The translations under genes and the position numbers were made by a program. Shown here piece by piece: positions 38,290 to 40,094 of a DNA stretch of 64,000 bases. The notes under the pieces are model-generated. The model saw nothing but the letters and a program-made list of their open reading frames with translations. It was not told where the DNA came from and searched no databases. Source of the stretch: Escherichia coli O127:H6 str. E2348/69 (GTDB lineage: Bacteria; Pseudomonadota; Gammaproteobacteria; Enterobacterales; Enterobacteriaceae); NCBI RefSeq assembly GCF_000026545.1, contig NC_011601.1. One strand, 5' to 3'. The stretch's first letter is position 1. The number at the start of each line of letters is the position of its first letter.

Positions 38290-38400
38290 GTTAGATTGCC
38301 TGATGCGCTACGCTTATCAGGCCTACGAGGATCGTGCAATATATTGATTTTGCAAGATTGTGTAGGCCGGATAAGGCGTTTACGCCGCATCCGGCATGAA
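38290..38400. repeat. REP/BIME elements downstream of ybbP
   Basis: gcctgatgcgctacgcttatcaggcctac and taggccggataaggcgtttacgccgcatccggca. Confidence 0.7.
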
Positions 38401-38498
38401 CAGTGTGCATTTTGGCAATAAATATGAAACCAACTGTCATGTCGGTTTTTTTAAAGGCCGAAGGTGGTAAACCTTCGGCCTTAGCTACGTTTCCTCAG

Positions 38499-38582
38499 TT
38501 ATTCAATAAATTGACGGATCAGTTCTAGCAGCGCGATTAGCGCCTTAAGAACGATGAGAACTTTATCGAGAAAAGTTTTCAT
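38499..38582 (-). CDS. Putative 27-aa amphipathic micro-protein (MKTFLDKVLIVLKALIALLELIRQFIE)
   Basis: Hand-translated; AAGGGAG Shine-Dalgarno 6 nt upstream of the ATG; followed downstream by a perfect 10-bp-stem hairpin (about 38456-38480). Confidence 0.35.
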   Translation of the reverse strand: MKTFLDKVLIVLKALIALLELIRQFIE

Positions 38583-38656
38583 CCGTTGCTCCCTTAAGGG
38601 AGAAAGACAATCACAGCTTACCCTTACGTTGCCTGTAACTATGATTTTCTTCATGT

Positions 38657-39958
38657 GCTAGATGAGGACTGCCTCTCTCCAAATTAGAGCACCAGAATCA
38701 GCACCACCTGTATCCTGACCAGGACTTAAAAGTACTTTTCCGCACTGCGGTAATCCCTTGAGGCAGTATCACTACTAGCGTCGGGATTGTATCGCCAACA
38801 TAGCTGTTGTGTAAGTTCACAGAGATATTGCAATTGCCTCCGGATAAGTAAGGGGAGATTGCACTATGCAAATGCAGCATCTGATGGTTGGCTATCCTAA
38901 GTACTACCAAACGGCCGATTATGCGTTGAGGCTTTCAGTGATGGCTGATATAGCAACAATGAGAATGAAGGCTCTGCACTTCTGGGATAAACACGGTATT
39001 TCTGCAGCTTCTGAAGCCTTTGGCGTGTCCTGCCGCACGCTTTACTGGTGGCGTCAGTTACTGAACAAGGAAGGACCTGAGGGGCTAATCCCGCACAGTA
39101 AGGCACCTCTGGTGCGACGAAAAAAACACTGGCATCCCGATGTGCTGAAAGAGATTCGACGCCTCAGGACAGAGCTGCCGAACCTCGGTAAAGAGCAGAT
39201 TTTTGTTCGCCTGAAGCCCTGGTGCGAACAGCGCTATCTGGCCTGTCCGAGTGTTTCCACCATCGGCAGAATGATCGCTGCCGCACATGATAAAATGCGG
39301 ATGATACCTGTGCGTCTGGGATCGCGGGGGAAGGCACTGCTTGTCAAAAAGCGGTCTGCCAAACCCCGCAGGCCAAAGCACTACCGCCCGGTAAAGACAG
39401 GTGAGCTCATTGGGATGGACGCCATTGAGCTCAGAATGGGCGAACTGCGTCGCTATGTCATCACCATGATCGACGAATGCAGCAATTACGCGCTGGCGCT
39501 GGCTGTGCCGTCACTCAACAGTGATATCGTCAATCACTTCTTCAGCCGCGCAGCCCGGTTGTTCCCGGTCGGTATCAGCCAGATAATCACAGATAACGGA
39601 AAAGAGTTCCTGGGAAACTTCGACAAAACGCTGCAGGAAGCCGCTATCAAACACCTCTGGACCTATCCCTACACGCCAAAAATGAACGCTATCTGTGAAC
39701 GTTTTAACCGGACGTTAAGAGAGCAGTTTATTGAATTTAATGAGATTTTACTCTTTGAAGATCTGGCGCTATTTAACCAGAAGCTGGCGGAATATCTGGT
39801 GCTGTATAACAGCAAAAGACCCCACAAGGCGCTCGCACTAATGACGCCCGTGGAATATATTTTAAAAGAGAATAAAAATTGCAATATGTGGTGGACCCAT
39901 ACAGCTGTTTGAATATGTAGGCATCCTGACTTATAATTCACTTGCTAGATGAGGACTG
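38657..39958 (+). mobile_element. Putative insertion sequence carrying one DDE transposase gene (IS481-like architecture); ends uncertain
   Basis: Transposase ORF bracketed by a 16-bp direct repeat tgctagatgaggactg at about 38657-38672 and 39943-39958; occupies the position where K-12 has the rhsD element. Confidence 0.45.
38866..39912 (+). CDS. DDE transposase, N-terminal HTH plus integrase-core (rve) domain, 348 aa
   Basis: ORF track; catalytic D (GMDAIE), D (ITDNGKEF) and E (ICERFNRT) with 35-residue D-to-E spacing. Confidence 0.7.
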   Translation: MQMQHLMVGYPKYYQTADYALRLSVMADIATMRMKALHFWDKHGISAASEAFGVSCRTLYWWRQLLNKEGPEGLIPHSKAPLVRRKKHWHPDVLKEIRRLRTELPNLGKEQIFVRLKPWCEQRYLACPSVSTIGRMIAAAHDKMRMIPVRLGSRGKALLVKKRSAKPRRPKHYRPVKTGELIGMDAIELRMGELRRYVITMIDECSNYALALAVPSLNSDIVNHFFSRAARLFPVGISQIITDNGKEFLGNFDKTLQEAAIKHLWTYPYTPKMNAICERFNRTLREQFIEFNEILLFEDLALFNQKLAEYLVLYNSKRPHKALALMTPVEYILKENKNCNMWWTHTAV

Positions 39959-40094
39959 TTTCATTTCTGCCCGGAACCACCAAGTCTTGGGCGGAAAAAA
40001 TAAAAAAACCGACTGTCATGTCGGTTTTTTTATATCTGTATTCTGGTGCAACCATTCTGTTCTCACGACAATCGCCGTTTCAGAATACCGCCCA

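Follow-up and report, generated by a model that had tools for sequence, protein, structure and literature searches.

An IS481-family insertion sequence between ybbP and mnmH of Escherichia coli E2348/69 lies in a dinQ-like toxin-antitoxin island, at a recurrent target next to a -35 hexamer

What occupies the interval between ybbP and mnmH in Escherichia coli O127:H6 str. E2348/69, at the place where E. coli K-12 carries rhsD? The stretch of DNA analysed here, called the window, comprises 64,000 nucleotides of contig NC_011601.1; in it, ybbP ends at 38281 and mnmH lies at 40095-41189 on the minus strand, with a gap of 1.8 kb between them, and 38282-40094 matches the strain at 100%. A preliminary description, made from the letters alone, had seen in this gap a single transposase gene in place of rhsD, devoid of convincing terminal inverted repeats and bracketed by a 16-bp direct repeat. 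I performed a computational analysis of the interval and of related loci in other genomes. With a probability of about 0.88, the gap contains an insertion sequence (IS) of the IS481 family that has entered an island encoding a dinQ-like (dql) type I toxin and an AgrB-like antisense small RNA (sRNA), and the target, adjoining a -35 hexamer, is a recurrent one.

The transposase gene is part of a complete IS481-family insertion sequence of 1,096 bp, a relative of ISKpn28, at 38808..39903 on the plus strand, whose limits are given by identical units elsewhere and by an exact empty site. The left inverted repeat (IRL), TGTGTAAGTTCACAGAGATATTGCAATT, occupies 38808..38835 (plus strand), and the right inverted repeat (IRR), with the reverse complement TGTATGGGTCCACCACATATTGCAATT, occupies 39877..39903 (minus strand). 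Aligned with the reverse complement of IRR, IRL shows TGT...ACA tips and imperfect repeats of 27/28 bp with 23 identical columns out of 36, including a common block of 11 identical nucleotides, ATATTGCAATT. The target sequence GCTGT, single in the empty-site allele, is duplicated at 38803..38807 and 39904..39908. Thus, the view that convincing terminal repeats are missing was mistaken; of the outcome that had been named as fatal to it, assignment to a well-known IS with clear inverted repeats, the part concerning the repeats has come true.

The empty site was reconstructed in silico by deleting the IS and one GCTGT and was then compared with genomes. It is identical to strain Z1323HEC0423 at 100% over 485 nt including the junction, and the order there is ybbP, the dinQ-like gene and mnmH with nothing else. 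Aligning strains free of the insertion, as the preliminary description had proposed, therefore gives the exact ends. A search of other genomes for further copies of the transposase gene found many that share only 38808-39903 and have different flanks. Seven loci with different flanks all yield the 1,096-bp unit TGTGTAAG...CCCATACA, and the six other than that of the window each have a 5-bp duplication of their own. In E. coli, the unrelated sites include a colicin plasmid, the native dinQ locus of EC12, the ldr/rdl cluster, and the intervals ybaP-ybaQ and nudC-rsd. At unrelated loci on both chromosomes and plasmids, copies were found that match the IS of the window at 100%. The IS or its older variants occupy 1,927 places in 1,419 of 5,426 complete E. 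coli genomes, with as many as 38 places in a single one. The length is 1,094-1,096 bp, and the 5-bp duplication is seen at 17 independent sites. In its profile and single open reading frame (ORF), its tips, its duplication and length, and its mobility, the element conforms to the IS481 family, and as a complete member of that family it is ordinary and of low novelty. DDE cut-and-join transposition would be expected from the family membership.

Older variants, 93-94% identical, make up most of the 1,419 positive genomes. The IS type of the window is essentially confined to E. coli, with one match among 100,044 species-representative genomes; this match (L137, SFGN01000096.1; L numbers are my labels for records used in comparison) is a 7-kb contig binned as a Lachnospiraceae metagenome-assembled genome and is probably an enterobacterial contig wrongly binned. 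One variant lies between galF and yegH (L009 2001-3096), where it seems fixed and has a decayed duplication, TTGCC/TTGCA. A frameshifted copy is found on ColV-type virulence plasmids between iss and iroB (L010 2000-3085). In strain IAL7254, whose genome has 14 copies, one copy (L011 2001-3096) lacks a target duplication and is flanked on either side by a truncated gene (a regulator and ppc), which indicates an IS-mediated deletion or inversion.

The transposase ORF (38866..39912, plus strand) begins with ATG and encodes 348 amino acids in one uninterrupted frame, with no programmed frameshift. The preliminary reading of it as IS481-like, with an intact DD(35)E triad, is borne out. NCBIfam NF033577 (IS481 transposase) matches with an E value of 1.5e-65 and 221.6 bits over 283 of 284 profile positions, the next-best NCBIfam family being IS3 at 98 bits; Pfam recognises rve, rve_3, and N-terminal HTH domains including HTH_32; and D185, D243, and E278, spaced by 58 and 35, are the candidate catalytic residues, an R being present at E+7. 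The frame has no internal stop codon within the IS. It reads across IRR and ends in the flank at a TGA (39910-39912), which forms bases 2-4 of the -35 hexamer TTGAAT of the neighbouring promoter. The full-length members of the 90% protein cluster range from 348 to 372 amino acids: at TTGA-type targets the transposase gains two residues only, and at TTGC-type targets reading continues, giving the 348-372-residue variants. PGAP calls the window copy 'IS481 family transposase', a generic family name, the specific name being given to ISKpn28 copies. The C-terminus borrowed from the flank may be the reason why PGAP switches between this name and 'integrase core domain-containing protein'. By eye, nothing convincing was seen as a transposase promoter or as a circle-junction promoter formed by the TTGCAA blocks in the inverted repeats, and none is claimed.

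What was there before the IS? To its left, a 27-residue dinQ-like (dql) type I toxin, MKTFLDKVLIVLKALIALLELIRQFIE, is encoded at 38499..38582 on the minus strand and annotated by PGAP as 'dinQ' (WP_349808740.1). It scores 40.9 bits against NF041472 (toxin_DinQ; cutoff 30) and 24.5 bits against the DqlB model, under the cutoff of 35. To its right, an AgrB-family antisense sRNA, the antitoxin, occupies 39945..40033 on the plus strand with an intrinsic terminator at 40000-40033; Rfam RF02891 (AgrB) matches over its full length, terminator included, with 53.6 bits (gathering score 40) and an E value of 1.2e-7. For this sRNA a sigma-70-type promoter, TTGAAT-17 nt-TATAAT, is predicted at 39909..39937 (plus strand; 10 of 12 matches in a promoter scan), and the Rfam match begins 8 nt past its -10 hexamer. 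Neither gene had been noticed in the earlier reading of the letters.

Only the 5 bp of the duplication lie between the right end of the IS and the AgrB-like -35 hexamer, and the sRNA has its 5′ end 42 nt from the IS. The insertion point thus lies between the predicted back-to-back promoters of toxin and antitoxin. For the toxin, the -10 hexamer TACAAT of a predicted dql promoter is at 38786..38791 (minus strand), proposed from a promoter scan and from the empty-site sequence; in the present allele the scan gives only the hybrids CTTACA-18-TACAAT and TACACA-16-TACAAT, whose -35 elements are inside IRL. The native dql -35 region would have overlapped the AgrB-like -35 hexamer and would now be 1.1 kb away, beyond the IS. 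It is likely that the antitoxin core promoter is intact with loss of its upstream DNA, and that the toxin promoter keeps its -10 and has lost its -35 region. An insertion which leaves the antitoxin intact, with the toxin weakened or rewired, should be tolerated, and one which destroys the antitoxin should not.

The history of the locus may then be proposed as follows. An island carried a minus-strand gene for a 27-residue membrane toxin and a plus-strand AgrB-family sRNA whose 5′ part is complementary to the toxin leader. The 1,096-bp IS has transposed into it between the predicted divergent promoters, duplicating GCTGT, and its right end has settled 5 bp 5′ of the AgrB-like -35 hexamer, so that the antitoxin promoter would have been spared and the toxin promoter would have lost its -35. 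The site is no accident: by the statistics below, the IS and ISKpn28 recur in a fixed orientation, one 5-bp duplication away from the TTG of a sigma-70-type promoter.

Is this position a rule? Copies ranked by BLAST favour flanks resembling that of the window, TTG included, and a metagenome scan was chosen in their place. Exact IRR matches in metagenome contigs gave at least 60 unique right flanks; this number and the counts on flanks and sites below are among the matches listed. TTG stands at +6 to +8 of the right flank in 35 of 60 unique flanks and, after homologous sites are collapsed, in 21 of 45 groups (p about 1e-22). The 5-bp duplication is intact at 17 sites; this TTG is found at 15 of them, and the mirror-image CAA at none. 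A TANNNT at a spacer of 16-18 nt follows in 11 of the 21 TTG groups, compared with about 2% of the TTGs of the window, coding or intergenic (p about 1e-13), and in the position matrix of the flanks T29, A30, and T34 correspond to a -10 hexamer at a 17-nt spacer. Position 4 of the -35 hexamer is C in about 50% of the groups, the consensus being A. The IRR probe also recovers ISKpn28, and the sample was therefore split by IS type. The bias is present in both types, with TTG in 15 of 23 flanks for the window's type and in 18 of 33 for the ISKpn28 type.

Many of the sites belong to antitoxin sRNAs. In EC12, the duplication TGTCC is followed by TTGCAA, and AgrB starts 42 nt from the end of the IS; in strain 2015C-3163, the IS ends 41 nt upstream of the RdlD antitoxin sRNA. 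Thirteen distinct flanks are of hok/sok type, with the Rfam hok/sok model abutting the IS. Where both IS ends are available at hok/sok, the hok start codon forms the left flank, the Shine-Dalgarno sequence of hok (TCTCC/CCTCC) makes up the duplication, and the -35 is that of Sok. The Rfam 'sok' matches and the inferred Sok promoter are on opposite strands; the 157-nt model was taken as a marker of the overlap between hok leader and sok, and the distance was therefore measured to the annotated sokC 5′ end of K-12, which is 41 nt downstream of the equivalent position. The other sites include a Fur-box promoter upstream of cvi (L006) and STnc100.

Several points weigh against this account. About 40% of the sampled flanks have no TTG; in most of these, which are rearranged copies, the target duplication is missing as well. 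At two sites, L012 and L047, the duplication is intact and no TTG adjoins it. The promoters, and the effect of the insertion on toxin expression, are predictions. The IS481 score of the transposase is 2.4 bits below the curated cutoff of 224, probably because its C-terminus is taken from the flank. The element may already have an ISfinder name and a documented target preference. Under colistin selection, ISKpn28 has been found within the ORF of mgrB, at +91 (PMC6101004). Hence, the -35-adjacent preference is strong but not absolute. The published reports of ISKpn28 that were consulted, PMC6101004 among them, mention no promoter preference, and the literature searched, which left most subscription journals and ISfinder outside, contained no description of this IS, of IS481-family elements in hok/sok or dinQ loci, or of -35-directed insertion for ISKpn28 or any other IS. 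That insertion recurs in one orientation, 5 bp upstream of -35 hexamers and often at those of antitoxin sRNA promoters, is statistically solid and apparently undescribed.

Two further arrangements were observed at hok loci. Many hok/sok loci with this IS or ISKpn28 (L025, L026, L030, L063, L087, and L138 1760-1790) have the Sok region followed by an IS3-family end, TGTACTGACCCCAAAAAGTTGGACAG; in L138 the IS3-family element is annotated as ISKpn8. Since that end directly follows the Sok region, some hok/sok modules carry two IS at fixed positions. In a set of ISKpn28-type copies (L015/L082, L046, L124, L021/L097, and L105), the right end abuts different points of ...TGTCAACGCAAAGCAGAAGTGTCACC...; the left flank is the hok start region in L082, L021, L105, and L124, and L082 has the duplication TCTCC on both sides. 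These TGTCAACGCAAAGCAGAAGTGTCACC sites may represent a target associated with hok but lacking the usual sok -35, or nested deletions beside the IS.

How is the target chosen? One answer, with somewhat less than an even chance of being right, requires DNA alone: a short preference (NNNNN followed by TTG, often TTGC, as in the TTGCAA of the inverted repeats) combined with selection against gene disruption, RNA polymerase being uninvolved. IS30 and IS911 favour targets resembling their own inverted repeats, the block ATATTGCAATT is present in both inverted repeats of the present IS, and the frequent C at hexamer position 4, where the promoter consensus has A, agrees with such a preference. Yet a preference of 3-4 nt plus intergenic selection does not predict the excess of correctly spaced TANNNT, and the geometry differs, the motif being 5 bp from the tip at targets and 20 bp from the tip in the inverted repeat. 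The other answer, which I offer tentatively and which is possible rather than probable, is that the ISKpn28 subgroup seeks out sigma-70 promoters. Promoter-bound RNA polymerase, through sigma region 4 or the alpha C-terminal domain, or else promoter architecture would recruit the transposase, and the element would insert in one orientation with the right end 5 bp upstream of the -35, at -41/-42. The strict orientation and the -10 hexamer at canonical spacing fit recruitment by RNA polymerase. I know of no earlier promoter-directed bacterial insertion sequence.

If promoter recruitment is true, the subgroup would be a counterpart of Ty3 with TFIIIB and of the IS1202 elements that hunt Xer sites, and a side effect would be that type I toxin genes (hok and dinQ/dql) are repeatedly split from their expression signals with the antitoxin promoter spared. 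Landing at a fixed distance and orientation at the -35 would amount to a 'safe-harbour' strategy, undescribed for bacterial IS in the literature searched; it would account for the recurrent IS insertions in hok/sok, ldr/rdl, and dinQ/agrB loci, and might serve to direct insertions to promoters or to report on promoter occupancy. Since Klebsiella resistance plasmids commonly carry ISKpn28, the target rule also bears on plasmid stability modules (hok/sok) and on IS-mediated changes of expression. Taken alone, the locus of the window is ordinary, a known IS family in a known type I toxin-antitoxin family at a known variable spot of E. coli.

ISKpn28, an IS481-family element of Klebsiella pneumoniae, resembles the IS of the window in its size (~1.1 kb), its 5-bp duplication, and an ORF that runs out through IRR. 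Its terminal repeats are near-identical (TGTGTAAGTTCACA.AGATATTGCAATT / AATTGCAATATGTGGTGGACCCATACA), its transposase has 80% amino acid identity, and it has the same geometry next to TTG and the same hok/sok position; an annotated ISKpn28 on an E. coli plasmid occupies this hok/sok position with the duplication TCTCC. The two differ in nucleotide sequence, with ~75-78% identity and 75.4% over the full 1,096 bp. Isoforms are expected to share roughly at least 95% nucleotide identity. Since the value is far under this threshold, the window element is, judged by its sequence, not an isoform but a distinct IS of the ISKpn28 subgroup.

IS481 of Bordetella pertussis and its family share with it a single DDE transposase without frameshift, TGT...ACA tips, imperfect terminal inverted repeats, and a length of ~1 kb. 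IS481 itself duplicates NCTAGN. Family members are about 1-1.3 kb long and duplicate 2-15 bp, mostly 6 (PMC10045372); the window element differs in duplicating 5 bp rather than the commoner 6 and in adjoining a -35 TTG in one orientation. The closest precedent for the behaviour is the IS1202 family, placed within or next to IS481 in transposase trees (PMC10045372). ISAjo2 and other IS1202-family 'dif-site hunters' insert in a single orientation, lying 5 bp away from the XerC site of pdif/dif (Harmer, Pong and Hall 2023, PMC10132070), and recruitment by a bound protein was proposed by the authors (PMC10132070). The likeness extends to TGT...ACA tips, imperfect repeats of 24-26 bp, 5-bp duplications, and a fixed orientation near a protein-binding site. 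In contrast, the IS1202 elements are 1.5 kb in length, encode a TnsB-like transposase of 441-457 residues (with a beta-barrel as well as a C-terminal domain), and use Xer sites, whereas the window element has 1.1 kb, a transposase of ~345 residues, and a -35 hexamer as its neighbour. Thus, the likeness is one of behaviour, not of membership.

IS186A adjoins hokC in the K-12 genome. Pedersen and Gerdes are said to have reported in 1999 that IS150 or IS186 lies next to hokA, hokC, and hokE of K-12, where these elements are thought to inactivate the toxin loci. IS150 and IS186 differ from the present case in belonging to other IS families and in being inserted downstream of hok, not at a fixed place upstream of the sok -35.

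Did the IS bring the toxin with it? In EC12, the same IS stands at the equivalent position of the native dinQ-agr locus, and one might imagine that it carried the dinQ/agr module from the gor-ars locus, dinQ and IS forming one composite mobile unit. This is very improbable: the island of the window has only ~69% DNA identity with the dinQ region of K-12 and EC12, the duplications differ (GCTGT in the window and TGTCC in EC12), and the island without the IS is present at the same locus, at a coverage of at least 80%, in 1,125 of the 5,426 complete genomes. It is simplest to suppose that the IS inserted twice, independently, at promoter positions that are equivalent.

The preliminary description had taken the mobile unit to be a solitary IS481-like gene without inverted repeats, set by the 16-bp repeat (~38657 to 39958). 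The repeat is genuine and flanks the ORF: the 16-mer TGCTAGATGAGGACTG is found at 38656-38671 and 39943-39958 and grows to 22 nt with 2 mismatches. However, it does not bracket a mobile unit. Both copies are present, adjacent to each other, in the ~1,125 genomes that lack the transposase, and IS copies elsewhere have only 38808-39903 in common. The second copy is the 5′ end of the Rfam AgrB match, and the first (38650..38671, minus strand, as extended) is the predicted antisense target in the 5′ untranslated region (UTR) of the dql mRNA. The predicted duplex between sRNA and toxin leader, anchored at 38657, has -73.8 kcal/mol compared with -43.5 +/- 3.8 for shuffled sRNA, about 8 standard deviations lower; it contains a perfect core of 16 nt plus wobble pairs and is stronger than the cross-pairings with K-12 dinQ/agrB. 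A unit delimited by the repeat is hardly tenable and can be regarded as already refuted. By the complementarity of the two RNAs, the repeat is the sense/antisense pairing core of a type I toxin-antitoxin module and is unrelated to the IS. Weakest of all, with practically no chance, is a conserved, non-mobile (domesticated) integrase-like gene native to the locus, for which one could cite the label 'integrase core domain-containing protein' given by PGAP to many copies, and which is already refuted by the presence of the gene here in only 5 of 5,426 genomes, far from all strains, and by identical copies at many unrelated sites, chromosomal and plasmid-borne, which have separate 5-bp duplications, with up to 38 places in one genome.

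To which known module does the island correspond? In K-12, the antisense sRNA AgrB regulates dinQ, and its gene repeats part of the dinQ leader in direct orientation. The window module shares with K-12 dinQ-agrA/agrB (Weel-Sneve 2013, PMC3567139) a hydrophobic toxin of 27 residues, an AgrB-family sRNA on the opposite strand, extended 5′-UTR complementarity, and a hairpin after the toxin gene. The last is a perfect 12-bp inverted repeat at 38454..38482 (minus strand), just 3′ of the gene, presumed to be the dql terminator; its position equals that of the hairpin after K-12 dinQ. The two differ in that K-12 dinQ is at the gor-arsR site with two agr genes and a LexA box, while the window module is at ybbP-mnmH, has one agr gene, and is interrupted by the IS. 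A dinQ-like (dql) gene family has already been described (Kristiansen 2016, PMC5066626), and the module belongs, by its sequence, to these published genes. No CTG-N10-CAG was found in the dql region, where at best 11 of 20 positions agree with the LexA consensus; the LexA box of K-12 dinQ, CTGGATAATCATACAG, matches at 15 of 20 (L004 2985-3000). Since the dql of the window has no LexA box, the name 'damage-inducible DinQ' is probably misleading for this paralog and for the about 1,100 genomes with the island. Four points of annotation are thus corrected: the repeat reflects RNA pairing and not IS ends, this 'dinQ' has no LexA box, the transposase borrows its stop codon from the flank, and the C-terminus borrowed with it may account for the uneven PGAP names.

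How does the interval compare with other alleles? From ybbP to selU/mnmH, K-12 carries rhsD-ybbC-ylbH-ybbD-ylbI-ylbG, so that the preliminary description was right to place rhsD here in K-12. No DNA similarity to the rhsD region or to ylbG remnants was found in 38282-40094 by comparison with K-12 ybbP-selU, and no Rhs core or tip ORF is present; repetitive extragenic palindromes (REPs), the dql island, and the IS account for all of the interval. Of 5,420 genomes, 1,908 have a short ybbP-mnmH interval and the others a long one (Rhs-type), and the short spacings among the records listed include ~58, 130-140, 240, 603, and 712 nt. The minimal allele (L135) is a 58-nt spacer, and another (L136) has REPs only, the same as those of the window, where REP/BIME-type palindromes lie 3′ of ybbP at 38290..38401. 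There, Rfam ES036 matches 38319-38361 with 40.3 bits, over its gathering score, and a partial naRNA4 match covers 38365-38401. In the 712-nt allele, the dql island is added between ...gtgca and cagaat.... Thus, the interval of the window is one of several alternative alleles of a variable locus, with a dql island of ~0.6 kb inside; the island is what this allele natively contains, and the IS came late, in the O127:H6 lineage. Since the IS-less island is abundant and few genomes have the IS here, the IS did not 'replace' rhsD. The preliminary description was right on the position and wrong on a lone replacement gene, because the IS entered a pre-existing toxin-antitoxin island.

The island is bracketed by a direct repeat of 40 nt. 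Its left copy (38414..38453, plus strand) is a degenerate AgrB-type terminator hairpin at the left edge of the island and is 83% identical to 39993-40032; neither copy is present in the minimal allele. This suggests that the island arrived or was duplicated as agr-dql-agr and that the left agr was then mostly lost, an arrangement comparable to the agrA/agrB tandem of K-12.

The K-12 gene ylbG was considered as a relic of this IS and rejected, as only an HTH stretch of 43 residues is alike (33% identity, E 2e-4). It is an HTH-only remnant of a different transposase, adjoining selU (L005 10646-11017).

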